Source: Desulfurococcales archaeon
Lineage (GTDB): Archaea; Thermoproteota; Thermoprotei_A; Sulfolobales; Acidilobaceae
NCBI GenBank assembly: GCA_015523445.1
Contig: WAKG01000085.1
Location: forward strand, 1 to 62,812
Length of the DNA: 62,812 bases
Reading direction: 5' to 3'
The notes below the pieces were generated by a model. That model was given only the letters and a program-made list of their open reading frames with translations, was not told where the DNA came from and did not search any database. How positions within the stretch are numbered: position 1 is the first letter of the stretch; each line of letters starts with the position of its first letter. Shown in pieces: positions 6,242 to 62,812 of the stretch. Made by a program: the position numbers and the translations under genes.

Positions 6242-7134
6242 TGCCTGTTGTTGGATGCACGATAGTATGGTACTTGAGGTCTTGGTATGAACTCTACGCC
6301 AGGCCTCTGCTGGAGGGCTTGTGGGTATAGCTCCATGAGCTGGTAGACCTCTGGGGGCACCTCGGTGCTGACCGGGAGGCCCAGCTTCTTGGCCTCCTCA
6401 ACGGTTATAGGATAGTCATGCGTATAGTAGCCGCTGGTCAGCTTATCAGCAACAATCCTAGCCTTATCCTCCCCCATCTTATCCCTTAGTAGCTCGACTA
6501 TAAGCTCCTGCATCTCTCTTAGCGCCTTCTCGGCGACATCTGCATAGATTAGGGTTTCATCACTCGCCTTATCACCCTTCTCCCTAGCCACTTTGACTAG
6601 GCTGGGTGCTGGGAATGATCCTTTCGGTGTCTGAAGCTGAGGGTCTAGGGGGCCTAGGACCGCTGCAGGGTCCATGCGTATCTCATCCGCTGCCAATGCT
6701 ATCAGCGTGCCCCCGCTCATGGCGTAGTGTGGCACGATCACGATCTTCCTGCCCTCGTGCTTCTTAAGCGCACGTGCTATCTGAGATGCTGCCAGGACGA
6801 GGCCTCCGGGTGTGTGTAGAATGAGCGCTATAGTCTGCCCCTTTGGGGTGGTCCTTATCGCCCTTATCACAGCCTCCGAGTCTTCTATGTCGATGAACCT
6901 ATAGACTGGGACGCCGAGGAATCCTATCCTCTCCTGCCTGTGAATCATGGTGACTACACGCCACTTGTACCTATCCTCGATCATCTTGATCAACTTGAGC
7001 CTTGCAGACTGTAGACCTCTCATCTGTAGCTGGGGGTACATGATCATGTATAGGAATAGGAGCCAGAATAGCAGGCTTACAATGTCAAAACCCGGTACAT
7101 TCTCCATTAGATCCACCTCTATATCCTCATGCAT
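6238..7134 (-). CDS. Membrane-anchored ClpP-fold serine protease (S49 / SDH 'serine dehydrogenase proteinase' family, DUF114-like)
   Basis: N-terminal TM helix (IVSLLFWLLFLYMIMY), then ALILHTPGGLVLAASQIARALKKH...VIVPHYAMSGGTLIALAADEIRM, which is the typical SppA/SDH catalytic-serine region. Confidence 0.75.
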   Translation of the reverse strand: MHEDIEVDLMENVPGFDIVSLLFWLLFLYMIMYPQLQMRGLQSARLKLIKMIEDRYKWRVVTMIHRQERIGFLGVPVYRFIDIEDSEAVIRAIRTTPKGQTIALILHTPGGLVLAASQIARALKKHEGRKIVIVPHYAMSGGTLIALAADEIRMDPAAVLGPLDPQLQTPKGSFPAPSLVKVAREKGDKASDETLIYADVAEKALREMQELIVELLRDKMGEDKARIVADKLTSGYYTHDYPITVEEAKKLGLPVSTEVPPEVYQLMELYPQALQQRPGVEFIPRPQVPYYRASNNRH

Positions 7135-26225: not shown

Positions 26226-28282
26226 CGATGGTGGAGCCAGGGTACGTGGTCGAGGGATTCCTCCCCTGGAGTCTGGCATGGCTGGCCCCATACATAGGTG
26301 CATTCATCCTGGCGCTAGCCTACATAGCAGGCTCCAGGAATGACAAGCTATACTGGGGCGTAAGCCTAGTCTCGATACTGGCATCAGCTATAATCTCAAC
26401 CATAGCAGCGGCTAGAGTGCTTGGAGGGGAGCCTATATACGCTAAGGCAAGCGGCTACTGGTTCCCCTGGATCAAGGTCACGCTAGGCACCTACATAGAT
26501 GGGCTCTCAGCCGTGATGGCACTAGTAGTATCGTGGCTGAGCTTCCTGATAGCACTCTACAGCGTGAAGTACATGGAGGGTGACTGGGGCCTCCACAGGT
26601 ACTTCTTCTTCATAACATTCTTCGTGGGCAGTATGCAGCTAGTAGTCCTAGCAGACAACCTTCTACTCCTATTCATAGGCTGGGAGGGGACAGGTATAGC
26701 CAGCTACGCCCTAATAGGCCACTGGTACACAGACGAGGAGGAGTACTGGGTCGGAGTCCCAGGCAGGAGGGCCCTAGGCCAGCCAATGTACTTCGAGCCT
26801 AGCCACAGCGCGGTGAGGGCAATACTCTTCACGAGGATAGGGGACATAGGCCTGCTGGTAGGCACGGCAATAATCTACCTAACTGTAGGCACTATAACCA
26901 TACCAGAGCTAGTCCAGAACGCAGCGGCGTGGATAGGGGCCCTAGCTGCGAAGGGCATACTGCCTTCACTCCTACTTATATTCACCCTAGGGGCTCTGGG
27001 CAAGAGCGCCCAGTTCCCATTCCACGAGTGGCTCGTTACAGCGATGACTGGACCAACACCAGTATCAGCACTGATACATGCAGCCACCATGGTCAAGGCA
27101 GGAGTATACTTCATACTGAGGTTCGCCCCCATAATAATAGTCGGGGCCCTGGCCGCCGGGGAGGCTGCTAAGGCCCAGGCCCTGGACTACTTCACTATAG
27201 TAGCAGGGCTAGGGGCGGTAACTGCTTTCATGATGGCAACAATGGCTCTAGTATCGAACGAGCTAAAGCTGATACTAGCATACTCAACTGCTAGCCAGCT
27301 GGGATACATGTTCATAGCGGGGGCAGCCGCGGGTATAATAGCATACCACGGAGAGCTGGAGGCGGCTCTATCCAGCGTCATGGCAGGGCTAAGTCACCTG
27401 GTCAGCCACGCAGTCTTCAAGGCCAGCCTCTTCCTAATAGCCGGGTGGCTCATACACGTGGCCCATAACAGGTTCATAGACACGATGGGCAACTACGCCA
27501 AGTACATGAAGCTAACAGCATTCTCCCTATGGCTGGCAGGCCTCAGCCTAGCCGGGCTACCGCCATTCAGCGGCTTCTTCAGTAAAGAGCTAGTGATATA
27601 CTATGCCGAGGAGGCCGGGATAGGCCCGGTACTATGGCTTGCAGTGATAACTGCAGGGCTAACAGCCGCGTATACCCTCAGGATGATCATCAGGATACTC
27701 CACCTACCACCCCGAGAGGAGGGTCATGGGCATGAGCCGCATGAAGCCCACCCCATAATGCTGGGCCCATACCTGGTGCTTGCACTGGCATCCATAATAC
27801 TGGGCTTGGCCTGGGGCCAGGTGTCAGGCGTACTCTCTAAGGCGGCACAGCTGACCGCTGCAATAGGTGAGGCGGTGAGCCTCCAGGTCAAGTTCGCCGG
27901 GCTAACCTACATTGTGATCGGGCTAGTGCTTGCATCAATGGGTGTGGTAGGCTTCCTCTACATGGCTGCTAGGGTAGACTTTATGGGTATAGTAAGCAGG
28001 AGTACAGCCGCTAGGATGATCCACGACTTCCTCTACGACAGGTGGTACATAAACTCGATCTACTATATAGTATTCGTGGGAGGGTTCACCTATATAATGC
28101 TAAGCCTACAGCTAGTCGATAGCCTGATAGACCTACTATACCACTCTGCGATCCCGCTACTGGCAGCACTAGGCGCGGCTGCGCTTAGAACACTACACCG
28201 GGGCAGGACAGACTACTACCTGACGCTGTACATCTACTTCGCATCCTTAGCACTACTACTCATCTACCTATACTGGAGGTGA
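26222..28282 (+). CDS. nuoL: NADH-quinone oxidoreductase subunit L
   Basis: 686 aa, the longest antiporter-like subunit. It includes FIGWEGTGIASYALIGHWY, FHEWLVTAMTGPTPVSALIHAATMVKAG, and a C-terminal extension consistent with the lateral helix. Confidence 0.9.
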   Translation: MTMVEPGYVVEGFLPWSLAWLAPYIGAFILALAYIAGSRNDKLYWGVSLVSILASAIISTIAAARVLGGEPIYAKASGYWFPWIKVTLGTYIDGLSAVMALVVSWLSFLIALYSVKYMEGDWGLHRYFFFITFFVGSMQLVVLADNLLLLFIGWEGTGIASYALIGHWYTDEEEYWVGVPGRRALGQPMYFEPSHSAVRAILFTRIGDIGLLVGTAIIYLTVGTITIPELVQNAAAWIGALAAKGILPSLLLIFTLGALGKSAQFPFHEWLVTAMTGPTPVSALIHAATMVKAGVYFILRFAPIIIVGALAAGEAAKAQALDYFTIVAGLGAVTAFMMATMALVSNELKLILAYSTASQLGYMFIAGAAAGIIAYHGELEAALSSVMAGLSHLVSHAVFKASLFLIAGWLIHVAHNRFIDTMGNYAKYMKLTAFSLWLAGLSLAGLPPFSGFFSKELVIYYAEEAGIGPVLWLAVITAGLTAAYTLRMIIRILHLPPREEGHGHEPHEAHPIMLGPYLVLALASIILGLAWGQVSGVLSKAAQLTAAIGEAVSLQVKFAGLTYIVIGLVLASMGVVGFLYMAARVDFMGIVSRSTAARMIHDFLYDRWYINSIYYIVFVGGFTYIMLSLQLVDSLIDLLYHSAIPLLAALGAAALRTLHRGRTDYYLTLYIYFASLALLLIYLYWR

Positions 28283-29986: not shown

Positions 29987-31480
29987 ATGACTAAGGCTAG
30001 GCATAAAGCCTCTAAGAAAAGGAAAACGAGTCCACTATATATGATATCAAAAATAAAAATAAAAAATTTTAAAAACATAAAAGAAACAGATATTACTCTA
30101 TTGCCTGGCGTAAATATTTTAGTGGGCCCTAATGCAAGTGGTAAAACTAGTATTTTGGAAGCAACATATTTCCTTTATAAAGCGTTAATAGATGCTGCCG
30201 AAAAGACTCCCTATCGCCCTCATATTCCTGAATATTGGAGTGGATTAGATCTCATACATGGCAAAGATCCAAATAAGAATATAGAAATAGGAATAACATT
30301 AAATGTATATTTACCATCTAATAAAAATGATAAATGGTGCCATGAAACGATAGAAGGAGTTGTGGTATTTGGATATGATGCACAGCGGGATACAATCTTG
30401 CCAATCGAATATAATTTTCTAATAAGTAATTATTTATATTTAAAAATAAATACTAACTCTATAGAAATTATAATGAATAAAGAATCCTGGGAAGCATCCG
30501 GCAAACCTGGCCGTAATAGTGCATCGTCAATAATTGAGAAAAAGAATAAAGTTATACTTACATATAATATAGATCCAAGAAGAATAACATCAGTCTTTCT
30601 TCATCCAAGAGCTATAATATCTATGTATGAAACAGATTTTCATATTATTAATTATGCAATTAAGAAGAAAGGTGATAACAGGTCATCTTATAAAGTTAGC
30701 TTTATAAGGTTTCCCCTCTTGGATATTGAAATACCTGTTGTGTTAAGGCCCTTTACTGAGTGTTCCGAAGAAGCCAAGGGAATACCCGTTTCATGGGACA
30801 ATATGTTGTTAAACTTTTTGCTTAGTAAGGTAGATTATCTAGATCCTTCACTTGCTATATCATTATTATTTGATGCCATTCGTAAAATTGTATTTTTGCG
30901 ACATCCCGATGCGGGTGCTCTTCGCGAGCCTAGGCCTTTTACTGGAAGCAATAGATTGAATCCAAGGGCTCAGAATCTCGCAGAAGTTCTCTTAACCCTT
31001 CATGGCAGGCTCGGACGTATGCCAGAGAGACTTGAGGAACTCATCTCTAAGGCATTTCCCGAATTTAGGGTTTGGGTTGACTCAAAGTTTGGCCGTGTCG
31101 TATTGATGTCTGAATGGAGAGGTATAGAGATGCCTCCTCCAAACCTTCCAGATGGCCTCATAAAAACTCTGGCAATAGGTGCGGCTATTGAGCTAGGTCC
31201 TAGTTTATTGCTTATAGATGAGATAGAGAACAGTCTGCATGCTAATCTATTAGAAATCATTATCGATGAATTAAACCAGTTACCGGTCCCCGTGATAGCA
31301 GCTACACATAGTCCTATTCCTGTTGATATTGTTGGACCTGAAAGGACTATTGTAGTCTTATCTGAAAGAGATGGAGTAGTAGTTGAGAGGATAAGAGATC
31401 CGGTGAAACTTAGAAAATCCTTAGCAGAGCATGGTGTTACTTTCAGTGACTATATTTATGGGGTGACAGTTAAAGATTGA
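29987..31480 (+). CDS. ABC/SMC-type P-loop ATPase (AAA_21/OLD-ATPase-like), candidate defence ATPase
   Basis: N-terminus MISKIKIKNFKNIKETDITLLPGVNILVGPNASGKTSILEA (Walker A at 30125-30151). Signature-like PDGLIKTLAIGAAI. Walker B SLLLIDEIENSLH (D at 31217-31219). H-loop IAATHSP. The likely true start is the internal ATG 30041. Confidence 0.8.
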   Translation: MTKARHKASKKRKTSPLYMISKIKIKNFKNIKETDITLLPGVNILVGPNASGKTSILEATYFLYKALIDAAEKTPYRPHIPEYWSGLDLIHGKDPNKNIEIGITLNVYLPSNKNDKWCHETIEGVVVFGYDAQRDTILPIEYNFLISNYLYLKINTNSIEIIMNKESWEASGKPGRNSASSIIEKKNKVILTYNIDPRRITSVFLHPRAIISMYETDFHIINYAIKKKGDNRSSYKVSFIRFPLLDIEIPVVLRPFTECSEEAKGIPVSWDNMLLNFLLSKVDYLDPSLAISLLFDAIRKIVFLRHPDAGALREPRPFTGSNRLNPRAQNLAEVLLTLHGRLGRMPERLEELISKAFPEFRVWVDSKFGRVVLMSEWRGIEMPPPNLPDGLIKTLAIGAAIELGPSLLLIDEIENSLHANLLEIIIDELNQLPVPVIAATHSPIPVDIVGPERTIVVLSERDGVVVERIRDPVKLRKSLAEHGVTFSDYIYGVTVKD

Positions 31481-32019
31481 ACTATAGTTTGCGTATAGTT
31501 GCTGTGGAGGATACGTATGGCGTCGGGTTCCACAATGAGCTGATATCGTGGCTTATAGGCTCGAGTATCTTGTGCAATAGCCGCCCTAGGATTAGAAGGA
31601 TGCCTGCTAAAAAGTGTAATCATGCTCTCTATAGAAAGCTTGTTGGCATAGCTCTGGCTAAAGCATTTAATAATTGGAAGATATTAGTTGTAATCGATTC
31701 TGAAGGCAGGGCCCCAGAGGAGGCTTCAAGGCAGGACGTATTATCCCACATTCAAAAAGGAGTTGAGGAGCACTTTCGCGTTGCCGTTGTAGAGCCCCTC
31801 CATGAAGCGTGGGTTTGTCTGGGTCTCGGAGGCCCTAGGGCCATCTGTAGATCTGGAAAGGGTGCTATCAGATTTATAGAGACTACTCTGGGAGTTAGGT
31901 ACGAGAAGAGATTACTCGAGAAGATACCGAAAATGCGGGAATTTACATTTTCAAGGCTTCTTGAGGAACGTGATTTTCAAGTATACATCCAAGGCTTGAA
32001 GTGGCTCCTGGATTGTTGA
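31477..32019 (+). CDS. Small TOPRIM-like (DUF4276/RloB/DUF4435-like) protein, putative nuclease partner of the ATPase
   Basis: TTG start overlaps the ATPase TGA (TTGA), preceded by GGGGTGA. Motif order: RIVAVEDTYG (E11 at 31507-31509), KILVVIDSEG (D74 at 31696-31698), VAVVEPLHEAWVCLG. This E...DxE/D...ExW arrangement is the pattern I recall for small TOPRIM-like partners of AAA_21 ATPases. Confidence 0.5.
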   Translation: MNYSLRIVAVEDTYGVGFHNELISWLIGSSILCNSRPRIRRMPAKKCNHALYRKLVGIALAKAFNNWKILVVIDSEGRAPEEASRQDVLSHIQKGVEEHFRVAVVEPLHEAWVCLGLGGPRAICRSGKGAIRFIETTLGVRYEKRLLEKIPKMREFTFSRLLEERDFQVYIQGLKWLLDC

Positions 32020-33266: not shown

Positions 33267-34028
33267 ATGGAGGGTTTGGACGAGTTCAAGAAGGCTATAG
33301 CTAAGTATGGCCACTTCTTCAAGCATGCTAGGGTTGATAAAGCCCAGGCCATAAGCGTGGAGGAGATCCAGCAGACCATCGCCTCCAGGGCCCGGGTAGA
33401 ACTGGATACAGGTAGAAGCCTCGAGGAGAACGTGGAATATCTTAACTCCAAGGGGCTCCTAGCCCAGTGGGCGGCTGAGATCGGTGGTAGAATAGGGGAT
33501 AAGGTGGATAACCCGGGTAAGGCCCTGGAGGCTGCGCTGGAGGGGAGGCTGGAGGAACAGGGGGCAAGGGCAATGCTACTGGCGATACAAGCAGTGGCCA
33601 GGTCCTATGCCGACAAGCTCCTAGAGAGGGGTGTAGGCTACGAGCCCTCTGCCAGATGCCCCGTGTGCGGCCTTGAGAGCAGGACCATGGTTAGGAGGGG
33701 TAGGTGGTTTAACATGATATGCCACTTCTGCGGGTACGAGTGGAGGGTGTCCAACAGGATGGTGTGCCCCTACTGTGGGGAATCCAACCCCGTGGCAGTG
33801 GGAGTCTATGGGGATAAGGCGAGGAGGGTTATGCTGGCCAAGTGCCACACCTGCAACTCTACCTGGAGGGTTGTTATGGACGAGACGATCAGAGCCCCCA
33901 GGATACTACTCCCCCTGATCGCCCTCAAGGCCGAGCAGTTCCAGGTCTTCGCCAACCTCGGCAGCGGTAGAGGAGACGCAGGCCTGGAATGGAGCCAGAT
34001 ACATGCCGAGGGTGGCTATGAAGAGTAG
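33267..34028 (+). CDS. FdhE-like four-CxxC zinc/iron-binding protein (paralogue 1)
   Basis: CPVCG-x19-CHFCGYEWRV-x5-CPYCG-x23-CHTCNSTWRV reproduces the FdhE rubredoxin-like arrangement (CPVCG...C..C..EW.V.R..C..C...C..C). Confidence 0.6.
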   Translation: MEGLDEFKKAIAKYGHFFKHARVDKAQAISVEEIQQTIASRARVELDTGRSLEENVEYLNSKGLLAQWAAEIGGRIGDKVDNPGKALEAALEGRLEEQGARAMLLAIQAVARSYADKLLERGVGYEPSARCPVCGLESRTMVRRGRWFNMICHFCGYEWRVSNRMVCPYCGESNPVAVGVYGDKARRVMLAKCHTCNSTWRVVMDETIRAPRILLPLIALKAEQFQVFANLGSGRGDAGLEWSQIHAEGGYEE

Positions 34029-34415
34029 CGGCCTATAGGCCTGGGAGCACCGCGTCTCTTCTAGGACCTTACCAGTCGTGTACTCCAGGGAGTCCTTGAG
34101 CACCTTGGCAATAAGCAGTACACCGGCTAGGGTGAAGAATAGCCCGGTTAAGGCGCTTGACACGAAAAGGTTCCTCAGAGTCCTAACCCTACCGGTCCTG
34201 GTAAGGTCCTCAAACCTCTTTACATGTAGCAGCGTATAGATCTCGAACATGCCCCCTACAAGGGCCATGCCCACAGAGGTAGATGTCAGTATAGACTGGA
34301 ACGGAGGACTGGGAAGTATTGACCCGAGGACGGCAACCCATATTGATGAGGCCATGAGTACTGGGCCAGCTATACTAGCCCTCTCCAGACCATATTCATC
34401 CACCCGCTCCACCAC
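33906..34415 (-). CDS. Small integral membrane protein (about 4 TM), last gene of the NurA/HerA/MBL operon
   Basis: Hydrophobic segments AGPVLMASSIWVAVLGSIL, VGMALVGGMFEIYTLL, SALTGLFFTLAGVLLIAKVL and LLFIATLGMYLAPF. The start overlaps the MBL gene end by 20 nt. The 3' end overlaps the convergent FdhE-like gene. Confidence 0.5.
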   Translation of the reverse strand: MVERVDEYGLERASIAGPVLMASSIWVAVLGSILPSPPFQSILTSTSVGMALVGGMFEIYTLLHVKRFEDLTRTGRVRTLRNLFVSSALTGLFFTLAGVLLIAKVLKDSLEYTTGKVLEETRCSQAYRPLLFIATLGMYLAPFQACVSSTAAEVGEDLELLGLEGDQGE

Positions 34416-35397
34416 CCACCACCGGCCTGGCGAAGGACCTTATACCTAGAACCCTCTCCAGGTATCTAGCTGTAAACCACGCGTCTTTCCCCCTATAAGC
34501 ATCCACTACAACCATTCTAGGCGAGGCCTCCCTCACGTACTCCACGATCTCCCTAAACGTGGCGTGGTCGCTGAAGGAGACATTATACACGTTATCCGCA
34601 ACCCTAGCGGCCGGGGCCCTCAGCTCCCACCCCGTCAACACTATATGGGTCCCTGGGAGCCTCCTCTTACCCCTAGACCTTGAGGCGTGCATGAAGAGGA
34701 CCACCGACTCCCCATGCTCCCTCCCAGTGTAAACCCTCACATCATCCAGCTGGTACCCGTAGAACTCCGCCGCGACCCTGGCGAGCTTCACGGTCTTCTC
34801 ATCAGCGATGAAGGGATAGGTTACACCCCGCCTCCTAAGCTCTACCATTACCTCCTGAAGCTTCCCATTGTACCCATAGACCCACACAGGGCCCCGGGAT
34901 ATGTTATCCTCTATCAGGCTCACCAGGGCTGCCAGGGCGTCCCACTCCCCCCACCTCCTCTGTAGCCTAGGGCTCCCATAGGTAGCGTCTATAACTAGCA
35001 CGTCGAGGCCTTGCATGGGAGGGGTGCCTGGCATCTTAAAGTCACCCGTATACCCTACCACTCCACCCCTGCACTCGACGAGGACCTGGCTACTACCCGC
35101 TATATGCCTGGCAATCTTTAGCTCTAGGACCTCGTCCTCCAAAGCTATCCTCCTATCATAGGGGAGCTCCAGCCTCTTCGCCTCTGGCACTTTCTGGCCA
35201 AGGATCTCGAGGAACCTGAAGGTAGTTGGCGTGGCTATTATGAAGAGGCTCTCCCTCACGCTCCTCGAGAGGCCCATAGTGTGGTCTGAGTGGGCGTGGG
35301 TGACGACCCTATAGGGCCTAGGCCAGAACGAGTCTGCAACCACCCCCTCCCCAAGCAGCACAGCACCCCTGCCAGCAACATCAGCAGTGCATGCCAT
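34396..35397 (-). CDS. Short beta-CASP-type metallo-beta-lactamase-fold nuclease
   Basis: HxHxDH as VVTHAHSDHTMG, later H (IARHIAGS) and D (YTGDFK). beta-CASP-like motif A is VIDATYGSP and motif B is SFSDHATFREIVEYV. 333 aa. Confidence 0.75.
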   Translation of the reverse strand: MACTADVAGRGAVLLGEGVVADSFWPRPYRVVTHAHSDHTMGLSRSVRESLFIIATPTTFRFLEILGQKVPEAKRLELPYDRRIALEDEVLELKIARHIAGSSQVLVECRGGVVGYTGDFKMPGTPPMQGLDVLVIDATYGSPRLQRRWGEWDALAALVSLIEDNISRGPVWVYGYNGKLQEVMVELRRRGVTYPFIADEKTVKLARVAAEFYGYQLDDVRVYTGREHGESVVLFMHASRSRGKRRLPGTHIVLTGWELRAPAARVADNVYNVSFSDHATFREIVEYVREASPRMVVVDAYRGKDAWFTARYLERVLGIRSFARPVVGGGAGG

Positions 35398-35457: not shown

Positions 35458-37614
35458 CTATCCCGCCAGCCTCAGCCTATCCACCATAACCAGTAGGGGT
35501 ACCCGCCTCTCTGGCGCTGCCAGGCCGGTTACAAGTGCCTCCCCCATACTAGGCTCTAGGTCGGGTAGCCTATCGACTATATCGCTAGCAGCACTCTCTA
35601 CCCCCCTCTTTATCGTTGACAGGTCGTCAGGGTTAGTTGTCCTCAAGAGTATGCTGGACGCCGTCTGGCTAAGCACGCCGGGGTCCACGAAGGCTGGCCT
35701 CTGGGTTACTAGCCACATACTCAACCCCCACTTCCTCCCCTCCCTGGCTACCCGTAGGAGTGATGCCTTGCTGGCCCTCTCCACCCCGGCCGGGGCTAGG
35801 TTGTGTGCCTCCTCCACGACAAGCACGGTTAGCCTCCTAGGATCGTAATCTCCCACGTGTAGATTGAACAGCCTCCTTATCAGGGTTGAGAGTAGCAGAT
35901 CCACGTTGCCAGTGCTGGGCGGGGCTAGGTGCACTATGGAGAAGCCCTCCATAAGCCTGCTCATAAGTGCATCGAATATGAGAGGATCCACCACGTCGCT
36001 GGTCATACCAGCTACCTTACGGAGCCTCCTGAGCACTCCACTCAATATGTGATCACTGTACTCGGTAGTCCTCAGATAGTATATAGCATCAGACAGCCGT
36101 GCCCTCGCCTCCCCCACGCCATCTGGGCTCCCAAGGAGGCTACAGAGCGCCTGCTTCTCCCCCGCTCTGGCTGGATCGGCGTATCCAAGCCTGTAGGAGA
36201 GCCAGGCAAGGTAGCGGAGGAGGGGGAAGAAGTACTTCCTGCCGCTCTTGGCATCTCCAGCCAGTATGATGCCCAGCTCGTCTTCAGGCTTCTTATCTTG
36301 GGCGCCGCACCAAAGTATCATAGCGTCGAGGATCTTCCCAGCCCTACCTTCGGCGTCTCTCCTGGTCGATATGCCTCCGGTGAGCCTTCTGTTGAGGTGT
36401 GCATCTAGCAGAGCGTTCATGAGGGTGACCCCATAGATGTCATGGCCACTGTAGAGGTCTAGGGCTGATGCTAGGTCGGATACTATTAGGGGGAAGTACT
36501 CGCTGGTGGCCCCGCTAACCTCGATCATCTCCTCCACATCCATGAAGCCGGGCAGGGGGAGGAGTATAACCAGGCTCCTGCTATCCCTGATCAGCCTGTA
36601 AGCATCATTATACCTAGCCTTGGAGGGCTGGAGCCCCGAGCAGCCTGGGGTGGCCCTTGACATAGCCCTATCCTTGTCGAAAAAGGCCAGCACATCTACA
36701 CTCGAGCCTAGCCTTGGGGTCAGGGAGAGGCTGCAGGCCATATCAGCAAGTCCATTCCACAGGTACTCCCTCTGCACTTGAGCTCCTGCACGGGAGGCCT
36801 CGTATGGTACTATGATAGTGAGGCGCCCCGGCTGCCTGCCTCCGCCATACTTCTCTGGCATCATCACAGCGTCTAGGAGGGGCACCGTGTCCTCCCTTAG
36901 GTAGGGGTACCCGGTGTATTCCCCGGCTATGTCGAATACTATTATCCCGCCCCTAGGGTAGCCTATCCTATCCCTCCTCGAGGAGACCTCGTATACCAGC
37001 CTCTTCACGGTCTCCGTCTTACCGCTACCCGTCTGGCCCAGTATTGATAGGTGGGTTGTTAGCCTGTCTGGGTTCAGGTAGATCCTGACCTCCCTATTGT
37101 AGCTTAGCCTGCCCAGGTAGAGGCCGCTCTCAGAGTAGTCCCCTCCGAGCCGGTGGTGGAGGAGGCTCTCAAGCCTCAAAGGGTCGGGATACTGGATCCT
37201 GCTGAAGGGCCGGGGCGGCCTGTCATAGGGTTCCAGCCTCTCCCCATCGCCAGCCCTTACGACGTGGCCTAGGACGTTCAGCTCGACCTTCATTATACTG
37301 CTCCACCTGACTAGCTCCTGGCCGGGGCTCATTATCTCCTCCAGCACCCTGACAGCATCCTCCAGCCTGGTGGCTCCTATGGACTCGTAGATCCTTCTGA
37401 GCCTCTCAACGTCTAGGGCCGGGTGGGGAGTCTCCTCCTTCACATCTGTGATCATGGCTAGGTACCTGTCCCCCGAGGTCCTATCGCTGACCTCGACGAG
37501 CGTGCCGTACCTTACCACAGCCTCGGCCGGCCTCAGGAGTATGCCCTGCACGCGGCCATAAGCCTCTATACTAGTCGTGAAGCCAGTAAGCCTATCCTCA
37601 GCCACGATACCCAC
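35458..37614 (-). CDS. HerA/DUF87-family (FtsK-HerA superfamily) ATPase, long form
   Basis: Walker A ILGQTGSGKTE (aa 191-201), HerA-typical IIVFDIAGEY, Walker B LTVLVVEEAHNLAP (aa 595-608), then REGRKWGLSMWLVTQRP. N-terminal HAS-barrel-like region. Confidence 0.85.
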   Translation of the reverse strand: MGIVAEDRLTGFTTSIEAYGRVQGILLRPAEAVVRYGTLVEVSDRTSGDRYLAMITDVKEETPHPALDVERLRRIYESIGATRLEDAVRVLEEIMSPGQELVRWSSIMKVELNVLGHVVRAGDGERLEPYDRPPRPFSRIQYPDPLRLESLLHHRLGGDYSESGLYLGRLSYNREVRIYLNPDRLTTHLSILGQTGSGKTETVKRLVYEVSSRRDRIGYPRGGIIVFDIAGEYTGYPYLREDTVPLLDAVMMPEKYGGGRQPGRLTIIVPYEASRAGAQVQREYLWNGLADMACSLSLTPRLGSSVDVLAFFDKDRAMSRATPGCSGLQPSKARYNDAYRLIRDSRSLVILLPLPGFMDVEEMIEVSGATSEYFPLIVSDLASALDLYSGHDIYGVTLMNALLDAHLNRRLTGGISTRRDAEGRAGKILDAMILWCGAQDKKPEDELGIILAGDAKSGRKYFFPLLRYLAWLSYRLGYADPARAGEKQALCSLLGSPDGVGEARARLSDAIYYLRTTEYSDHILSGVLRRLRKVAGMTSDVVDPLIFDALMSRLMEGFSIVHLAPPSTGNVDLLLSTLIRRLFNLHVGDYDPRRLTVLVVEEAHNLAPAGVERASKASLLRVAREGRKWGLSMWLVTQRPAFVDPGVLSQTASSILLRTTNPDDLSTIKRGVESAASDIVDRLPDLEPSMGEALVTGLAAPERRVPLLVMVDRLRLAG

Positions 37615-37618
37615 ACCC

Positions 37619-39223
37619 CTACGACATATACCTTCTCCGGGTGGCGAAGTCTCTTATGAAAGTGGAGTAGGGCACTATCCTCCTCCCCAGGCTCTCTAGG
37701 AGGCTGGCCAGGGCCGCGGCCTCCCACTCGTTAACCCTACTCCTCTGGTCAACAACTATAAGGGGGGAGGGTACGCCGAAGTGTGTGGCCTGGCTCTGCG
37801 TGTATATATGCCTGGCAAGGTCTACACTGTCCCCACCGGGGATATACTCGAGCCTTATGGGGTGCCTGACCTGCACCAGCTCGGCCAGCTCCCTCGGCGT
37901 CATGCCCATCCTCTCGGCATGCCTTGCCAGGGTCTGGCATGAGGGTATGCGGTCTGTGAAGATGTATGTGAACATGACCTCCGGCAGGCCGGAGAGGCTC
38001 CTCTCAGCCGGGATTCCAGTGGCGTCCTCCAGCCTGTTCGACCCGTAGCTAGCCACTGCGGGAGGCTCGACCAGGGTCTTCTTGCTGAGTGGAGGGGTCC
38101 CAGCCAGCTCCTCCGGGCCGAATAGGTACCTGTACAGCATCATGACGTCAACATCACTCTTAACACCAAGCCTCTCAAGAGCCTGGCCACGGTATATTGC
38201 TAGGACGAGATCGCCCCTACCCTGCTTGGAGGCCTCCTCCTCCAACACCTCCCAGGGCGGCCTAGAGGAGGAGAAGAGGCTGGCCAGCATGGATTCTAGG
38301 AGCGCAGCCATATCATGGGCAGTCCTGCCAGGCTCCTCCACGAGGTCCTCGGCACACCCAGCTCTGGATATAGCCCTCTTTATAAGGGCATCAGCGTGGA
38401 GCCCCCGCGGGTACGACTCCATAACTCCGAGTAGCGTGTAGGTTGAGAGCTGCCTACTCCTACTAAGATCCTCAGAGACAGCTGCAATAGTGGCCCCGTC
38501 AACTCTGCCTAGCCTGGAGAGGAGGGCCACCGCCGCCAGCCCGGGGTTGCACGCCTCGCCATGACCACCCCTCCTAACTATAGACTCGTCCCTAACACTA
38601 TACACGACCTCCAGGGGAAGGCCAGAGTATCTGAGCACAGCCTCCACACTCCTACACGGCATGTCGAAGACCCTATTGAAGTACGTGCCAAACTGCTGTA
38701 ACAGGGCCCCATGCCTCACGACAAGCCTACGCCCCCCAGGCGAGCCAGGAGGCTGCTCGCCCAGAGCTATTGAGAGCATTATACCCAGCTCGGCTAGGTA
38801 GAGGCTGGCCTGCCTCTGCCTCTCGCCCCCCACAACGGGTAGGAAGGAGTAGCCCCCACTACCGATCAAGGGGTAGAGGATGCGCTCTCTAACCCTATCC
38901 CCTGCCCAACACCTCTCCAGCACTGCAGCCTTGAGCACGAAGCCCTCAACACCGCCACGAGTCCCCCTATACCCCCTGGCTCCCACATCTATGAAGTACT
39001 CGCACTCCCACCTAACCCCGAGAAGAGGCTCTACTTGGCCAAGACCGCTCCAGCCACCCCGGATCAGGCTAGCCCCGCCAAACTCCTCCACACCCCTAGC
39101 GGCTAGTGCCAGGGCAAGCCCTCCCCACTCCGGCGAAGCATCGCCAAGCTCTGTATACGCCAATTCCATAAACCCCCAATAAGGTGAGTATGGATGATTA
39201 AGGATAATTAGGAAATCCAACAC
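37619..39223 (-). CDS. NurA-like nuclease-domain protein (tentative), upstream partner of the HerA-like ATPase
   Basis: Stop lies 4 nt before the HerA-like start. C-terminal THFGVPSPLIVVDQRSRV resembles the NurA GYPYxLxxAHxxA block. Candidate N-terminal YFIDVGARG and central RRLVVRHGALLQQF resemble the NurA xDGS / DGSL strands, but with substitutions. The call is by context plus weak motifs. Confidence 0.4.
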   Translation of the reverse strand: MLDFLIILNHPYSPYWGFMELAYTELGDASPEWGGLALALAARGVEEFGGASLIRGGWSGLGQVEPLLGVRWECEYFIDVGARGYRGTRGGVEGFVLKAAVLERCWAGDRVRERILYPLIGSGGYSFLPVVGGERQRQASLYLAELGIMLSIALGEQPPGSPGGRRLVVRHGALLQQFGTYFNRVFDMPCRSVEAVLRYSGLPLEVVYSVRDESIVRRGGHGEACNPGLAAVALLSRLGRVDGATIAAVSEDLSRSRQLSTYTLLGVMESYPRGLHADALIKRAISRAGCAEDLVEEPGRTAHDMAALLESMLASLFSSSRPPWEVLEEEASKQGRGDLVLAIYRGQALERLGVKSDVDVMMLYRYLFGPEELAGTPPLSKKTLVEPPAVASYGSNRLEDATGIPAERSLSGLPEVMFTYIFTDRIPSCQTLARHAERMGMTPRELAELVQVRHPIRLEYIPGGDSVDLARHIYTQSQATHFGVPSPLIVVDQRSRVNEWEAAALASLLESLGRRIVPYSTFIRDFATRRRYMS

Positions 39224-39548
39224 TAGCCTGAGGCTACTATACCATTACATCAAAACAAAGGTAATACCGGCAAGCCTATGCAACATAGACCTAGAGCATC
39301 TTTAACAAGTCTACGGAAAGAAGTATCAAAGCCCATAAACTAAGCTTCTACCTAATAATGCAAGGGTAGATAGATGAATAGGAGATTAGTAATGATTTAG
39401 CGGGTTTTTGGCCTGAAGTTACCCATAGATCACTTGAACTATACTTTCATCTGGCCTCCTTCTGTATCTTAAAGATGGTTACTTCAGCTGTAATTTCAGG
39501 TATCCGTTTAAGGGAAAGTTTTTAAGGGCTCAACGTAAATACATTCGA
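39224..39548. promoter_or_regulatory. AT-rich divergent intergenic region between the NurA/HerA operon and the 609-aa wHTH gene
   Basis: 325 nt of non-coding, low-GC sequence separating two divergent transcription units, with several A/T-rich TATA-like elements (for example cctaataatg and gtttttaaggg). Confidence 0.45.
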
Positions 39549-41378
39549 ATGGCGAGCACGCTCTGGTGTGATCGGGGTGAAAATAGCGTGAGTAAGAGTA
39601 AGAAGACAAGTAAGATAACACTAGGCGAGGCACATGCCCGGATAATCCTAGCCGTGGGCGCATACCAGGAGCTGGGTGTAGAGCCGGAATACGGCGATAT
39701 CGCGAGGGCCACGAACAGGAGCCTCTCTAGGATCAGGGCAGTAGTCTCGGAGCTACTAAGGAGCAACCATAATCTTATCAAGAAGGTACCCGACACCCCA
39801 GTCAAGATACTCCTCACCGAGAAGGGGAAGAGGGTATACAAGGAGCTGAAGGCATCAATCTTGAAGAACGCAGAGGAGGTAATCGAGCCATCCAAGCTAA
39901 TCAAACTATTCGAAGACAGAATATATACTGATAGCAGGCAGAAGAAGTCCTTCGGTTCCGTGGAGGTAGCAATAGATACCGTAGTCCCTGCACTGAAGCT
40001 TAGGGAAGTCACGGAGAACCTGAAGAGAGGCTTCGGCCCAAGCCTACTGTACGGGTTATCGATAGAACTGGCAACAGCAACTCAGATAGCATCAGCCTCT
40101 GGTATAGGAAGTATAAGCTTTAACGAGCTATCGAGGCAGGTGATCAACGTCCCAATCAGGGTGGCCCGCGTCACGGATGTATCACTGCCACCACATATAG
40201 AGGGGAGCATAATCCCCATGGAGAGGGCGCGCGGGGCACTACGCTCCGTAACTATATGGCCGGAAAAGTCTAGGGGACGTGACATATACAGCTACGCCGT
40301 TGAGGCCGATGCCCTCGGGCTAGTTAAAGTAGCTAAAAGCGGGAAAGACGAGGTATACCTACAGCCCAAGCTCAATACTGGAATAGACGTCATAGACAAG
40401 CTCTCGGCCATAGGTTTCGATGTACTAGCATCTAATCCGACAAGGGCATGGCTACCCATACTATCAGTATACGGCGATGTAACCACACAGTTCCCAACAA
40501 AAGAAGAAGTGCTCAGCGGGAGCACACCCCTACTCGGCATACTCGGCGATGTAGTAGGCCCTAGCAAGGTGGAGAGATGGACCAAACACATGCTTGGACT
40601 CCAGAAAAGCCTCAATATACCGGCCCTAAACGTAGGGGCACCATATAAGACACTCGGCATAATCGATGTTATCAAGGTTGGCGACGAGAGCAGACTATTA
40701 TCACTCACGGTAGCACGTAGGATTATCGGAAGAAATGTAAAAAACCTACTAGAAGAAGAAGGATACAACATTAATCAGATATACAGGACAGTTGAGGAGA
40801 AGATCAGGAGGATCCTAGAGGATACAGGAGCATACGCCTATGTACTAAAAGAGTTTATAAGGAATGGGTTCATGGATAGAATCCAAGCTCTAGAGGTAGC
40901 AAGGCGACACATAGACAGCAACCCGGAGAGGATCCTAAAAGACCTAGAGAAGCTGGGGTTCATCTACTCAGTCGGGACCGGATACTATAGCGCATGGACC
41001 ATAACACCGATATACTACGAGGAGGATGAGACTCTGAGGACTCTACTGGCTTGGCTGTCAAAGGAGCTAAGAAGCTTTGGGAACGAGATGTACGAGGAAA
41101 TAATAAGGAAATTAATAGAGAATGGAGAAGTTGATATAGTAAACTTAGAATCCAGAACTTTAATTAGGGTAGTACGTGGTCTATCTATACTAGAAAAAAT
41201 GGGTTTAGTACAATTCATAGGAGATGAAACAGTAAAAGTAACAAGCGATAAGGCTCGCAAACTACTGACAACCGCATATATCGAGAAGAAGCTAGGTGTG
41301 GAAATTGGCTCAATAACACCATACGAACGTAAAAAACTACCTGATATAAAAGAAACTATTATAGATAAACTAAAGTAA
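39549..41378 (+). CDS. Large orphan protein with N-terminal winged-helix (MarR/TrmB-like) DNA-binding domain and further wHTH-like repeats
   Basis: N-terminus EAHARIILAVGAYQELGVEPEYGDIARATNRSLSRIRAVVSELLRSNHNLIKKV...LTEKGKRVYKEL has a wHTH pattern. C-terminal segments (ILKDLEKLGFIYSVG and VVRGLSILEKMGLVQFIG) look like additional winged helices. I see no enzymatic motif. Confidence 0.55.
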   Translation: MASTLWCDRGENSVSKSKKTSKITLGEAHARIILAVGAYQELGVEPEYGDIARATNRSLSRIRAVVSELLRSNHNLIKKVPDTPVKILLTEKGKRVYKELKASILKNAEEVIEPSKLIKLFEDRIYTDSRQKKSFGSVEVAIDTVVPALKLREVTENLKRGFGPSLLYGLSIELATATQIASASGIGSISFNELSRQVINVPIRVARVTDVSLPPHIEGSIIPMERARGALRSVTIWPEKSRGRDIYSYAVEADALGLVKVAKSGKDEVYLQPKLNTGIDVIDKLSAIGFDVLASNPTRAWLPILSVYGDVTTQFPTKEEVLSGSTPLLGILGDVVGPSKVERWTKHMLGLQKSLNIPALNVGAPYKTLGIIDVIKVGDESRLLSLTVARRIIGRNVKNLLEEEGYNINQIYRTVEEKIRRILEDTGAYAYVLKEFIRNGFMDRIQALEVARRHIDSNPERILKDLEKLGFIYSVGTGYYSAWTITPIYYEEDETLRTLLAWLSKELRSFGNEMYEEIIRKLIENGEVDIVNLESRTLIRVVRGLSILEKMGLVQFIGDETVKVTSDKARKLLTTAYIEKKLGVEIGSITPYERKKLPDIKETIIDKLK

Positions 41379-41514
41379 AACTTTATTTATTATTAATTTA
41401 TAATAAATTAAAATTTTTATATAATCATTTTAACTATTCATATTAGTATTAATGATGGATATGACGGGCTTCTTAGCTAGTCGTGGTATATGATGTCTTA
41501 TAATGAGTTTTTAA
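41379..41514. other. AT-rich spacer with T-tracts (likely terminator) and a 7-bp inverted repeat AATTTAT-a-ATAAATT at 41395-41409
   Basis: The sequence taaaactttatttattattaatttataataaattaaaatttttat lies directly after the stop at 41376-41378. Archaeal terminators are oligo-T tracts. Confidence 0.4.
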
Positions 41515-42108
41515 TTGTATGTGGTGTTTGATGACTTGTCTCCACTATATACTCTGGAGTGGCACTTGGGTCGTGGTGGTGGTTGGCTTCATTGTAGGTG
41601 TTTATGGGTGATTGGGGATGCTAGGCTGTTGTTGCTACTTCCCTGCAATCCGGGGGTTAGGATGGGGGACTATACCCTTGGCCAGAACTGGAGGGTTGTG
41701 CTAGGTGTTGTGGATGACCTAGTAGGCTCCGGCATACTCGACCTTGCAGCAATCGATAGCTGCAAGCCGGGAGTTGTAAGGTGGGGGGAGGAGCATGTGT
41801 ATAGGTGGTGTGATGTGAGGCCCCTGTGGCACGAACTCTATAAGAGGGAGCCCTGGAGGCTGGAGCTGCTGGTGGCTGGGGTTGCTGAGGACCTTAGGAG
41901 TCTGGCCCTAGAGTATAGGGCTCTGGCGGCCTACGTCAATGTGAGGGCCTATAGGACCGCCTTGGAGCTTGCCATGGCCAGGTCTGGGGTTAAGGTCCAC
42001 ATCTTGGGGCCCCCTAGGCTGAGCCCCCTGAGCTATAGGAGTAGGAGGAGCCTGGAGGCGCTGCGCAGGGGGCTCATGGGCCTGGCTAGGGCTACGGTCA
42101 CGCTCTAG
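41515..42108 (+). CDS. Hypothetical protein, upstream partner of the TGT/DpdA-like gene
   Basis: GC-rich 197-aa ORF (TTG start). The internal ATG 41662, preceded by GGGGG, would give 148 aa. It is separated from the next gene by 9 nt containing GGGGTGG. No recognisable motif. Confidence 0.45.
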   Translation: MYVVFDDLSPLYTLEWHLGRGGGWLHCRCLWVIGDARLLLLLPCNPGVRMGDYTLGQNWRVVLGVVDDLVGSGILDLAAIDSCKPGVVRWGEEHVYRWCDVRPLWHELYKREPWRLELLVAGVAEDLRSLALEYRALAAYVNVRAYRTALELAMARSGVKVHILGPPRLSPLSYRSRRSLEALRRGLMGLARATVTL

Positions 42109-42117
42109 GGGTGGGTT

Positions 42118-42891
42118 GTGGTGGTCAGGGTCTTCCTTGTGTTGCCGGATCTCTCACGCTCTAAGGCGGAGGCTCTGGCTAGGCTGGGCGGGGTGGATGT
42201 GCTTCTTAGCTATACTATATTGAGGTGGAAGCCCTCGGCCCTAGAGAGGCTCCGGGTGTTGAGGAGTAGGCTGGGAGATGTTATGCTAGACTCCGGGGCC
42301 TACCACCAGGGGAGGGGTGAGGCATGGGTGGACCCTGCCAGCTATGCTAGCTTCATCCAGGATAATAGGGGTCTCTTCGCCTACGTGGTCGCCCCCGACC
42401 ATCCCGGGGATCCAGGGGAGACGCTTGCCAGGACTCTCAGCTTCATGGAGCACTACCACGGGGAGTTCATACCCGTAGTCCAGCCCGGCCCGGGTCACGG
42501 GCCCCACACTCATATAGCGATGGTGGAGGAGCTTGACCGCGCCGGGATACTGGACAGGGCTCCTAGGGTAGGAGGAGGAGTACTGGTAGGGGTTGGGGGC
42601 CTTGACGGGGAGAGGAGGAGGGTGAGCTACGTGGCAACCCTTGTGGGAGAGGCTGGTAGGGAGTATCCATGGCTCAGGCTCCATCTATTCGGGGCGGGAG
42701 CTAGGATCCTAGGAGGCCTGGCAAGGAGGGGGCTACTAGATCAGGTTTACAGCGTTGACTCCAGCGGGTGGCTCGCGGAGATCATGTGGAGGAGGCGCAC
42801 GGTGCACAATGCAGATACGCCGCTAGAGGCTAACACTAGGGCTATAGAGACATATATAGAGAAGGTTAGGCAGGCGATAGAGGAGGCCTAG
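42118..42891 (+). CDS. tRNA-guanine-transglycosylase-fold protein resembling DpdA (7-deazaguanine DNA/RNA transglycosylase)
   Basis: VMLDSGAYHQG...VDPASYASFIQDN...YVVAPDHPGD compares with the DpdA MGDCGAFSY...Y..F.......VSVDH pattern and the TGT DSGGFQ motif. LRLHLFGAGAR compares with HLLGxG, and VYSVDSSGWL with the second catalytic-Asp block (FDSxS). 257 aa, short for a tRNA TGT. Confidence 0.5.
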   Translation: MVVRVFLVLPDLSRSKAEALARLGGVDVLLSYTILRWKPSALERLRVLRSRLGDVMLDSGAYHQGRGEAWVDPASYASFIQDNRGLFAYVVAPDHPGDPGETLARTLSFMEHYHGEFIPVVQPGPGHGPHTHIAMVEELDRAGILDRAPRVGGGVLVGVGGLDGERRRVSYVATLVGEAGREYPWLRLHLFGAGARILGGLARRGLLDQVYSVDSSGWLAEIMWRRRTVHNADTPLEANTRAIETYIEKVRQAIEEA

Positions 42892-62037: not shown

Positions 62038-62812
62038 CTATAGCCTCCGTATTACCTCGCTGATCGAGGGCCTGCTCCACGGCTCGGCCTGAAGCATCTC
62101 GCCCACAAGATCCCTCAGCCCGGGATCCACGCCTCCTAGCAGGGCATCAAGCTCGGCCCTACTCATGCCAACCCTACGGCTCCCATCCAGAACCTTACCG
62201 GTGGAGGCCTCAAGGATCAGGACTCCAAGCTGGTACACGTCAACCCTATCCTCATACCCTAGCCTGCTAGCCCTAGCCGCCAGGTCGGCGTATACCTGCT
62301 CCGGCGCGCAATAGCCGGGGGTACAGTGGATCCTCACACTAGGCCCCAGGCTGGCTCTCTCAGCCTCCTCCAGTAGGCTCCTAACACTGCTATAATCCCC
62401 CAGCTTCAACACGCCGGAGGAGACGAGCACGTTCTCCGGCTTCACATCTCCATGCACCAGCCCCCTGCTGTGGAGGAACCTGAGCCCGCTGGCCACGTGG
62501 AGCGCTGCACCCCTAACCAGAGCCGCACTCAGCCTGGCCCTAGGTATCCACCTCCTCAAGCTACCACCGTCAGCATATTCATAGACAGCCACGGGGAGGA
62601 CCCTCGAGTAGCCCAGCACCCTAACCAGGTTGGGGTGGACGAGCTTGTAGAGCCATGAGGCCTCGGGGGTCAATGCTCCCTCGGCAACTGTGGGTAGGGG
62701 CTCTCCTCCCTCTAGAGCACCTGAGAGGCTTTTGGAGGCCTTCAGGGCATAAACTCCGGTGGGGGTGGTGCACCTGTATACGCATCCCCAGCCTCCGCAG
62801 CCTAGGAGGCAG
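62038..62812 (-). CDS. Eukaryotic-type Ser/Thr protein kinase; 5' end beyond the window
   Basis: Catalytic loop LVHGDVKPENVLV, then DYSS (DFG-like) and APE (YCAPEQ). The frame stays open upstream of the track start to the window edge and encodes the glycine loop and VAIK lysine: ...LGCGGWGCVYRCTTPTGVYALKA... Confidence 0.85.
   Translation of the reverse strand, partial: CLLGCGGWGCVYRCTTPTGVYALKASKSLSGALEGGEPLPTVAEGALTPEASWLYKLVHPNLVRVLGYSRVLPVAVYEYADGGSLRRWIPRARLSAALVRGAALHVASGLRFLHSRGLVHGDVKPENVLVSSGVLKLGDYSSVRSLLEEAERASLGPSVRIHCTPGYCAPEQVYADLAARASRLGYEDRVDVYQLGVLILEASTGKVLDGSRRVGMSRAELDALLGGVDPGLRDLVGEMLQAEPWSRPSISEVIRRL

Follow-up and report, generated by a model that had tools for sequence, protein, structure and literature searches.

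We analyzed a stretch of 62,812 nucleotides (nt), referred to below as the window, from a Desulfurococcales archaeon (contig WAKG01000085.1 of assembly GCA_015523445.1) recovered from a hydrothermal-vent metagenome. Our subject is a pair of co-directional open reading frames (ORFs) at positions 41515-42108 and 42118-42891, both on the forward strand. The second codes for a putative minimal TIM-barrel transglycosylase of 257 amino acids (aa), a divergent relative of the DNA-modifying enzyme DpdA. The first codes for a small protein that appears to have the fold of the core of archaeosine synthase (ArcS) and of its viral counterpart ArcS2. On balance we think it probable that the two genes form a DpdA + ArcS2-like base-exchange module of the DpdA type, encoded in the chromosome and acting on nucleic acid. 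In the window the pair is flanked by core housekeeping genes (exosome, proteasome, SBDS, L15e, an Mrp-type antiporter and a formate-dehydrogenase-type oxidoreductase), so the locus is chromosomal, and it is not a provirus, since the IMG/VR viral contigs contained no relatives of either protein. We looked for RNA-seq evidence and found the locus in DNA metagenome runs only.

The enzyme gene (42118-42891) starts with a GTG codon immediately preceded by GGGGTG, and the partner gene stops at 42108, 9 nt before that start. A preliminary description of this DNA had placed an upstream gene at this distance with a length of 197 or 148 aa; the gene and the gap are real and the lengths are probably not. 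The upstream ORF is open from a TTG at 41515 (197 aa), and an internal Met would give 148 aa. Judging from the sequence and its relatives, the start is most likely the GTG at 41608, giving a gene of 166 aa (41608-42108, forward strand). An AGGTG lies 8 nt 5' of this codon, the database gene call (P0189) uses it and has 166 aa, and the homologues measure 160-183 aa, with the conserved part beginning at 'ARLLLLLPCN'. The 148-aa start is unlikely because the most conserved motif of the protein would be lost. About 56 nt 5' of the GTG there is a TATA-like box, CCACTATATAC (41542-41552, forward strand), a putative promoter element. The related syntenic locus L009 has this box too, and in the window the box has survived immediately 3' of a 2.3-kb insertion that is described below.

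Motifs of the tRNA-guanine transglycosylase (TGT) superfamily had been pointed out in the 257-aa protein, and all of them are found in the ORF: LDSGAY (42286-42303), VDPASYASFI (42328-42357) and APDH (42391-42402), followed by HLFGAGAR (42682-42705) and VDSSGW (42754-42771). None of them varies in 41 homologues, and all are in register with the active-site motifs of DpdA, so they did not arise by chance. The homology to DpdA and TGT is visible solely by profile, transitive and fold searches. We found 45 close homologues of the enzyme, all from uncultured Desulfurococcales/Acidilobaceae. The precomputed Pfam field is '-' for 45 of the 45, and NCBI gives one of them (P0021) the name 'queuine tRNA-ribosyltransferase family protein'. 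The family alignment and profile built from these close homologues (A1) has 35 invariant positions and, when used to search 1.84 billion representative proteins, gave 800 matches at E<=1e-3. Among 68 distant matches, 18 pass PF23859 (DpdA) and 4 pass PF01702 (TGT), while 61 of the 68 fit three PHROG 'queuine tRNA-ribosyltransferase' families. When A1 was aligned by hhalign with six PF23859-positive proteins, the probability was 99.6% (E 1.6e-24, 203 columns), with MLDSGAYH/MIDSGAYD, APD/SMD, PVxQG, GVGGL/GIGSL, HLFG/HxFG and SVDSxxW/SFDSFSW in register. A wider profile (A2) found one convincing match in the PDB, chain 7ui4_A, 'DNA-guanine transglycosylase' (the DpdA of Salmonella Montevideo; E 3.6e-13), and no tRNA TGT.

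Other searches of the enzyme gave weaker signals: PHROG 887 'queuine tRNA-ribosyltransferase' matched residues 22-130 with E 1.6e-4, and tblastn against 50,697 phage records returned one marginal match, to a Mycobacterium phage 'queuine tRNA-ribosyltransferase' (E 0.4). The AlphaFold2 model (pLDDT 95.1, pTM 0.92) has eight strands alternating with helices, that is, a TIM barrel. Foldseek of this model against BFVD gave phage DpdA-type 'queuine tRNA-ribosyltransferase' proteins on top (E 2e-9, TM ~0.65), and among the further matches are proteins from rod-shaped viruses of Sulfolobales and Acidianus (archaeal rudiviruses). As far as profiles and alignments can tell, the enzyme belongs to the DpdA/TGT superfamily as a divergent member and stands nearer to DpdA than to the tRNA TGTs; the relationship is remote but statistically solid. 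The hhalign result, the 7ui4 match and the fold matches in BFVD bear out the DpdA-leaning identity claimed in the preliminary description.

The active site can be compared with that of the S. Montevideo DpdA, where D95 serves as general acid/base and D256 as nucleophile, and where the base is read by D130, H181 and G206-G207. Mutagenesis has shown D95, D130, G206/207 and D256 to be essential, and the replacements D95A and D256A abolish exchange (PMC10164549). In our alignment D95, D256, D130, H181 and G206-G207 correspond to D58, D214, D94, Q122 and G160-G161 of the archaeal enzyme, so that equivalents of the catalytic Asp residues are present. By analogy, D58 (in LDSGAY) is predicted to be the general acid/base, D94 (in APD) to recognize the base and D214 (in VDSSGW) to be the nucleophile. 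These three residues are invariant in the 41 homologues and also in a clade that has no partner gene, and the pocket and catalytic set D58, D94, Q122, G160-G161-L162 and D214 was unchanged in every clade examined. Even in 69 distant relatives (20-30% identical) there is no variation at D58, D94 and G160, and conservation of D214, H189 and S212 is at least 90%. All the catalytic and pocket residues lie at the C-terminal ends of the barrel strands in the predicted model.

The architecture is reduced to the barrel. The enzyme has no cysteine at all and none is conserved in the family, hence there is no Zn site or Zn subdomain. After beta-8 the model has a single helix and nothing else, hence there are no DpdA insertions and none of the C1, C2 and PUA domains of the archaeosine TGT (arcTGT); the lack of a PUA domain had been correctly noted before. 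Phage DpdAs are also without part of the Zn site, a feature that is not universal to DpdA (PMC5699537).

The upstream protein of 166 aa had no match in the family libraries or among PDB sequences, nor in tblastn against the 50,697 phage records. Its 32 homologues share the motifs LLxLPCN, GDY, NWR, DSCKPG, GEE, WCD, YVNVKAY and PLSYRS, which in the window copy read LLLLLPCNPG (41626-41655), DSCKPG, GEE, WCD, YVNVRAY and SPLSYRS. In the distant homologues (L032 and the fusion P0052, see below) only LPCN, GEE and YxNVKAY persist. A structure prediction, which the preliminary description had proposed for this protein, gave a model (pLDDT 90.4) of a small alpha/beta protein. Foldseek against the PDB found 2q07 as the sole match at E<=1e-3 (E 5e-4, probability 1.00, TMq 0.56, 151 columns), followed by a scatter of weak matches to folds of the uracil-DNA glycosylase (UDG) superfamily. 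The entry 2q07 is Archaeoglobus fulgidus AF0587 and carries PCTARKPYLTSRTH. The ArcS2 of the virus STSV2 has been assigned to DUF5591, the archaeosine synthase catalytic core (PMC10516641). In our hands STSV2 ArcS2 matched 2q07 alone in the PDB (E 3.6e-8), and the ArcS signature PC-X3-KPY-X2-S-X2-H is complete in both AF0587 and STSV2 ArcS2, from which we conclude that 2q07 represents the ArcS/ArcS2 (DUF5591) core. By its model the partner accordingly has the ArcS/ArcS2-core fold, without being an ArcS member by sequence. What it has in common with ArcS2 is the 'LLLPC' of beta-1 and a collinear S..P.(I/V)V...E.E stretch; hhalign against STSV2_16 (ArcS2) gave E 0.068 over the LLLPC stretch only, which is not significant. 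A family-4 UDG-like Fe-S or Zn site formed by the four cysteines of the partner was considered and dropped, since the window clade lacks C16, and since L032 and P0052 have neither C52 nor C68.

We compared the surroundings of the enzyme in 55 dereplicated loci from genomes and metagenomes, 42 of which were informative and 13 truncated or uninformative. The partner adjoins the enzyme in 28 of the 42, upstream in some and downstream in others; in one more locus it lies 2.4 kb away, and in 13 there is no partner within at least 700 bp on both sides. It is kept even beside an enzyme relative that is only 25% identical (L032), and in P0052 (L031, 481-1737) the two are joined in a 418-aa protein, partner at the N-terminus and enzyme following with no linker, on a 1.9-kb contig where an assembly or frameshift artefact is possible. 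Adjacency in both gene orders together with this fusion upholds the earlier proposal that the upstream protein is a true partner. The partner-less loci belong mostly to one hot-spring lineage with conserved synteny beside a MoeA gene. Since the partner is missing in some lineages, an accessory (tailoring) role is favored over an obligatory structural one. In that lineage of Desulfurococcaceae (L025, L043, L045-L047, L049, L053, L054 and L066) the enzyme gene lies 4-74 nt 3' of a MoeA-type molybdopterin molybdotransferase gene and overlaps it in L054. The enzyme family is confined to uncultured Acidilobaceae/Desulfurococcales and is patchy: we found 22 loci among 185,579 species genomes, all of them uncultured metagenome-assembled genomes and none a cultured species. 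Such a distribution is unlike that of a housekeeping tRNA enzyme. The contexts of the pair are variable and non-syntenic.

As a separate observation, the representative library contains a distant DpdA-like barrel of 415 aa (P0148) with a DUF6884 domain fused at its C-terminus. DUF6884 is a YaaA/DpdC-related putative base-flipping domain, so this is another DpdA barrel joined to a small base-handling domain. Neither P0148 nor two other multidomain relatives gave a significant hhalign match to our partner.

Two neighboring genes recur with the pair. The gene at 35458-37614 (reverse strand, 718-aa ORF, divergent to the pair) codes for a HerA/FtsK-type ATPase, with matches to PF01935 (E 3.5e-15), HerA_C and the PADLOC HerA model (E 5.7e-38). 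Directly upstream of it in the same operon is a gene at 37619-39223 (reverse strand) with an ORF of 534 aa, for which the database call is 514 aa. In about 12 loci a HerA ATPase gene is no more than a few kb away from the pair, divergent or convergent and with otherwise unrelated flanks, and the 514-534-aa gene co-occurs with the pair in 11 loci; both are beside it in about half of the partner-bearing lineages. Recurrence in independent contexts agrees with the earlier suggestion that the neighboring ATPase is linked to the pair. A DUF87 ATPase adjoins the very distant pair in L032. The 534-aa protein matched nothing in Pfam, NCBIfam, PADLOC or the PDB profiles, NurA included; Pfam scans of ten of its homologues and a search of 5.8 billion proteins added no annotation. 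Its homologues form eight clusters and seem to share their contigs with the pair, several of these contigs agreeing in length with ones that gave partner or enzyme matches, and an 'IDxGS ... EGFVLK' stretch can be read by eye in the family consensus. We regard this protein as a candidate effector or nuclease of the system.

In the mechanism that we propose, the 257-aa protein would be a minimal TIM-barrel guanine transglycosylase in which D58 acts as general acid/base, by analogy with DpdA, while D94, Q122 and the backbone of G160-G161-L162 read the guanine or 7-deazaguanine face. A free 7-deazaguanine base, most likely preQ0, would be inserted. Archaea generally make preQ0 for archaeosine. 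The substrate would be DNA, because of the affinity to DpdA, the lack of tRNA-binding domains, the linkage to HerA and the patchy distribution. The partner, translationally coupled across the 9-nt gap, would most likely bind the same flipped base and convert or lock the preQ0 once it is in place, the part that ArcS2 plays for viral DpdA and DpdC for bacterial DpdA. Since it is without the KPY..S..H part of the ArcS signature, its product probably would not come from canonical ArcS chemistry. HerA and the 514-534-aa protein might then supply restriction or 'capture' in a self/non-self system along the lines of Dpd or of the BRC systems described below, the pair possibly being the marking half of a HerA-based restriction system. 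Taken to its end, the four genes would be an archaeal restriction-modification-like system, in which host DNA is marked with 7-deazaguanine through a non-canonical ArcS-like chemistry and unmarked invading DNA is captured and destroyed by a HerA-driven effector. This larger scheme is possible, and we put it forward tentatively and with some doubt.

A number of results weigh against the DpdA-type module or parts of it. The preliminary description had proposed a comparison with PF01702 and the DpdA families, and here the window protein had no direct match in Pfam (none at E<=1), NCBIfam or PADLOC, falling below the Pfam thresholds of both PF23859 and PF01702, which are curated family hidden Markov models (HMMs). 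Sequence searches and the narrow family profile alone found no DpdA or TGT in the PDB, and the top 50 Foldseek matches of the enzyme in the PDB are generic TIM barrels only. The partner reads L-P-C-N-x-(C/G)-V-R-x-G-D-Y and keeps of the ArcS signature only the 'PC' at the end of beta-1. None of 30 partner homologues matched DUF5591 (PF17884) or DUF6884 at E<=1, and a 4-sequence alignment of ArcS2 gave no significant hhalign match with the partner (E 0.7). In the 13 informative partner-less loci the enzyme has all its invariant residues and no partner within 1.5-8 kb, which means that the partner is dispensable in cis, and nearly half of the pair-bearing loci have neither HerA nor the 514-534-aa gene nearby. 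Among the ~36 window ORFs scanned there were no que, yhhQ, preQ0-synthesis or transporter genes. No canonical arcTGT was found in the ~0.75 Mb of collected loci, which are a small fraction of each genome, and in L004 the pair sits beside Pus10, KsgA-like and other tRNA/rRNA-modification genes. As to the generic barrels, aldolase-type and similar enzymes were rejected as a functional lead, since the conserved residues fit DpdA and not aldolases.

The arcTGT result and the setting of L004 speak for the main rival, a role in tRNA modification and archaeosine. The pair would act on tRNA or another RNA as a split, minimal arcTGT/ArcS-type system, inserting preQ0 at G15 or finishing archaeosine in place of ArcS, QueF-L or Gat-QueC. 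Canonical ArcS consists of a TGT-like domain and a DUF5591-bearing C1 domain, which are separately encoded in some archaea (PMC10516641, PMC5699537), and the fold of our partner is that of the ArcS core; in the ~0.75 Mb of collected loci no separate arcTGT was seen. However, the profile and PDB matches lead to DpdA and not to TGT, arcTGT or ArcS, the Zn subdomain and the tRNA-binding C1, C2 and PUA domains are all missing, and the catalytic Asp pair is retained, so that the enzyme is more than just a binding domain. None of the cultured species genomes scanned contains the family, its contexts change as those of mobile modules do, and it is repeatedly linked to a DNA translocase, HerA. We therefore consider action on RNA quite unlikely. 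A different alternative keeps DNA as the substrate and makes the partner a non-enzymatic subunit, which binds nucleic acid or flips the base and replaces the Zn subdomain/Ins8 and the DpdB of bacterial DpdA. In its favor are the lack of every DNA-binding insertion of bacterial DpdA in the enzyme, the natural fusion, the tight translational coupling, the loss of the KPY..S..H residues, the few motifs (LPCN, GEE and YxNVKAY) kept in distant partner homologues and the weak fold likeness to base-flipping proteins of the UDG superfamily. An obligatory subunit would, however, be expected to stay linked, and a clade with a fully conserved active site has no partner nearby; moreover, the conserved Cys at the end of beta-1 occupies the position of the ArcS 'PC', which suggests a retained catalytic role. 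On these grounds we judge the purely structural role to be unlikely.

Two further explanations change the direction or the target of the reaction. Crenarchaeal viruses (Ligamenvirales, Bicaudaviridae) carry DpdA and ArcS (PMC6884629), and hosts evolve enzymes that target 7-deazaguanine DNA (bioRxiv 10.1101/2025.10.29.685425). The reversible TGT reaction could serve an antiviral 'de-marking', in which viral 7-deazaguanines are swapped for guanine or an aberrant base and the DNA is exposed to degradation linked to HerA, the module being associated with that ATPase. There is no precedent for a TGT-family enzyme used in this way and no direct evidence for it, and a family member on a possibly viral contig near a precursor transporter (see below) favors insertion over removal, which makes de-marking very improbable. 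Finally, the enzyme might modify a protein, like Cap10 of type IV CBASS, where a nucleobase is conjugated to protein; Cap10 shows that retargeting of TGT-family enzymes to proteins is possible (bioRxiv 10.1101/2025.04.06.647259). A2 has a marginal match to the Cap10 structure 9ntn, yet this match is far weaker than that to DpdA (E 0.029 against 3.6e-13), and no locus contains a QueC-like Cap9, a CD-NTase or a CBASS effector. A protein target is thus hardly credible here.

The preferred reading, a DpdA-type module with an ArcS2-like partner, can be set against the systems already described. Bacterial DpdA (S. enterica Montevideo, 7ui4, PF23859) has the same TIM-barrel core, and its acid/base Asp, base-recognition Asp, GG loop, HxxG strand and nucleophile Asp align with ours; in both cases the gene shares its locus with several others, ATPase and nuclease-type genes among them. 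The bacterial enzyme is nevertheless much larger (~414 against 257 aa) and has insertions Ins1-3 and a 128-residue Ins8 with the Zn site, all absent here, while its H181 is replaced by Q122. Bacterial DpdA works with DpdC, which also acts on the inserted nitrile (PMC12839542). Near our pair there is no DpdB (ParB-like), DpdC (DUF328) or DpdD-K; PADLOC and Pfam find only HerA-type models, and the neighbors are instead the ArcS-core-like protein, HerA and the 514-534-aa protein. Viral DpdA + ArcS2 pairs have a similar gene organization. STSV2 genes 15 and 16 overlap and code for a DpdA of 291 aa and an ArcS2 of 185 aa, and like our pair they form a two-gene unit of a ~260-290-aa DpdA and a ~165-185-aa ArcS-core-fold protein, overlapping or tightly spaced. 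In Vibrio phage nt-1, DpdA2 alone leads to dPreQ0 in DNA and together with ArcS to dG+ (PMC10516641). The differences from the viral pairs are that the module here is cellular and chromosomal, that the partner fails the DUF5591 HMM and has no KPY-x2-S-x2-H, that hhalign of A1 against STSV2 DpdA gives only E 0.004, and that the STSV2 stretch examined has nothing to match the link with HerA and the 514-534-aa gene.

With archaeal arcTGT and ArcS the enzyme shares the superfamily and the pocket logic (D/D/Q/GGL/D), and ArcS, too, combines a TGT-like domain with a DUF5591 core. It differs from them by lacking the Zn subdomain, the C1, C2 and PUA domains and any match to PF01702 or to a TGT in the PDB, and by being patchy where arcTGT and ArcS are near-universal. 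The BRC systems (BREX-related capture; HerA/FtsK + GNAT + TGT) also place a TGT-family gene with a HerA/FtsK translocase in a putative defense locus, archaea included (PMC12839542). In contrast, PglZ, DUF6079/BrxC-like, STAND NTPase, DUF4007 and GNAT proteins were all missing among the families and neighbors looked at here, and neither our partner nor the 514-534-aa protein is described there (PMC12839542). Cap10 (9ntn) is likewise a TGT-family barrel in a defense context, but its companions (Cap9/QueC, CD-NTase, effector) are not present. Of a HerA-NurA translocase-nuclease pair, in which NurA is an RNase-H-like nuclease, the HerA domains are found here; the 534-aa neighbor has no NurA match by Pfam, PADLOC, NCBIfam or PDB profile. 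The individual parts (DpdA, ArcS core, HerA) are recognizable, and what is new is their combination: a metal-free minimal barrel, a signature-less relative of the ArcS core, cellular archaeal hosts and an orphan 514-534-aa companion.

A link to the 7-deazaguanine pathway comes from another locus. The 8.8-kb contig L034 (JGI 3300020567) carries a member of the enzyme family (E 1.3e-67 to A1) and a more distant paralogue, P0057, together with a queuosine-precursor transporter (TIGR00697, 80.7 bits against a cutoff of 51) that lies ~3.7 kb from the family member and two genes from the paralogue. It is the only direct link to the pathway, and it is found in a relative and not in the window locus. 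The features of this contig are at 549-1373, 1595-2269, 4052-4793 and 5966-6697, and it also has a glycosyltransferase gene. Two of its ORFs have weak matches to a rudivirus coat protein (PF12193), and the contig may be a crenarchaeal virus or mobile element that carries the enzyme family.

In the literature that we consulted, 7-deazaguanine modification of DNA is described for bacteria (Dpd islands), for phages and for archaeal viruses. Our literature search found no paper on this enzyme family and no case of 7-deazaguanine DNA in a cellular crenarchaeon. If the four-gene system were real, it would be the first instance of a cellular archaeon with 7-deazaguanine in its genomic DNA, and no smaller DNA transglycosylase would be known. 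If host DNA is indeed marked, hyperthermophilic archaea would join the organisms that mark their own DNA epigenetically by base exchange. The enzyme would then offer a metal-free scaffold of ~250 aa for the study and engineering of DNA transglycosylation at high temperature, the partner would be a new, signature-less branch of the ArcS core with presumably another chemistry, and a function would be at hand for a HerA paralogue and for the orphan 514-534-aa family. The module has a bearing, too, on the arms race against crenarchaeal viruses, which have DpdA/ArcS2 pairs of their own.

Other genes of the window seem to be less tied to the pair. A low-GC insertion of 2.3 kb (39212-41532, GC 0.44 versus 0.55) lies between the HerA operon and the pair, whose divergent promoter region it splits; it contains a 609-aa ORF (39549-41378, forward strand) with no family match, only weak winged-helix-like ones. 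The 80-85%-identical syntenic loci L001, L009 and L010 do not have the insertion (the region measures ~100 bp there), and neither a target-site duplication nor terminal inverted repeats were seen at its ends. As a recent low-GC insertion missing from syntenic relatives, the 609-aa neighbor was rejected as a component of the system. Downstream of HerA and co-directional with it there is a beta-CASP/metallo-beta-lactamase nuclease-like gene (34396-35397, reverse strand), with Lactamase_B_2 and RMMBL matches and a match below the cutoff to TIGR04122 'ligase-associated exonuclease' (E 3.9e-19). It is found only in the closest relatives L001, L009 and L010 and is thus a lineage-specific add-on. A 169-aa protein with no assigned family (33906-34415, reverse strand) follows HerA on the same strand and is present only in the same three relatives.

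We also noted dCTP deaminase genes near the pair in two unrelated loci, L002 (9594-10076) and L032 (3533-4066); STSV2 (L035) has one at 27693-28211, ~12 kb from dpdA/arcS2. This recurrence may be a coincidence. In the window, between the Mrp-type antiporter genes and a gene for a pyridoxal-phosphate-dependent decarboxylase, there is an island with a GC of 0.39 (29987-32019). It codes for a 497-aa AAA_15/AAA_21 ABC-type ATPase, with an N-terminus like those of MAD3, PtuA and RecF, and for a 180-aa protein whose gene overlaps it, and looks like an acquired two-gene defense cassette. Near the end of the window an ORF on the reverse strand (62038-62673) has a Ser/Thr protein-kinase domain, its best NCBIfam match being the MADS defense-system kinase MAD6 with E 7.7e-20, far below the cutoff.

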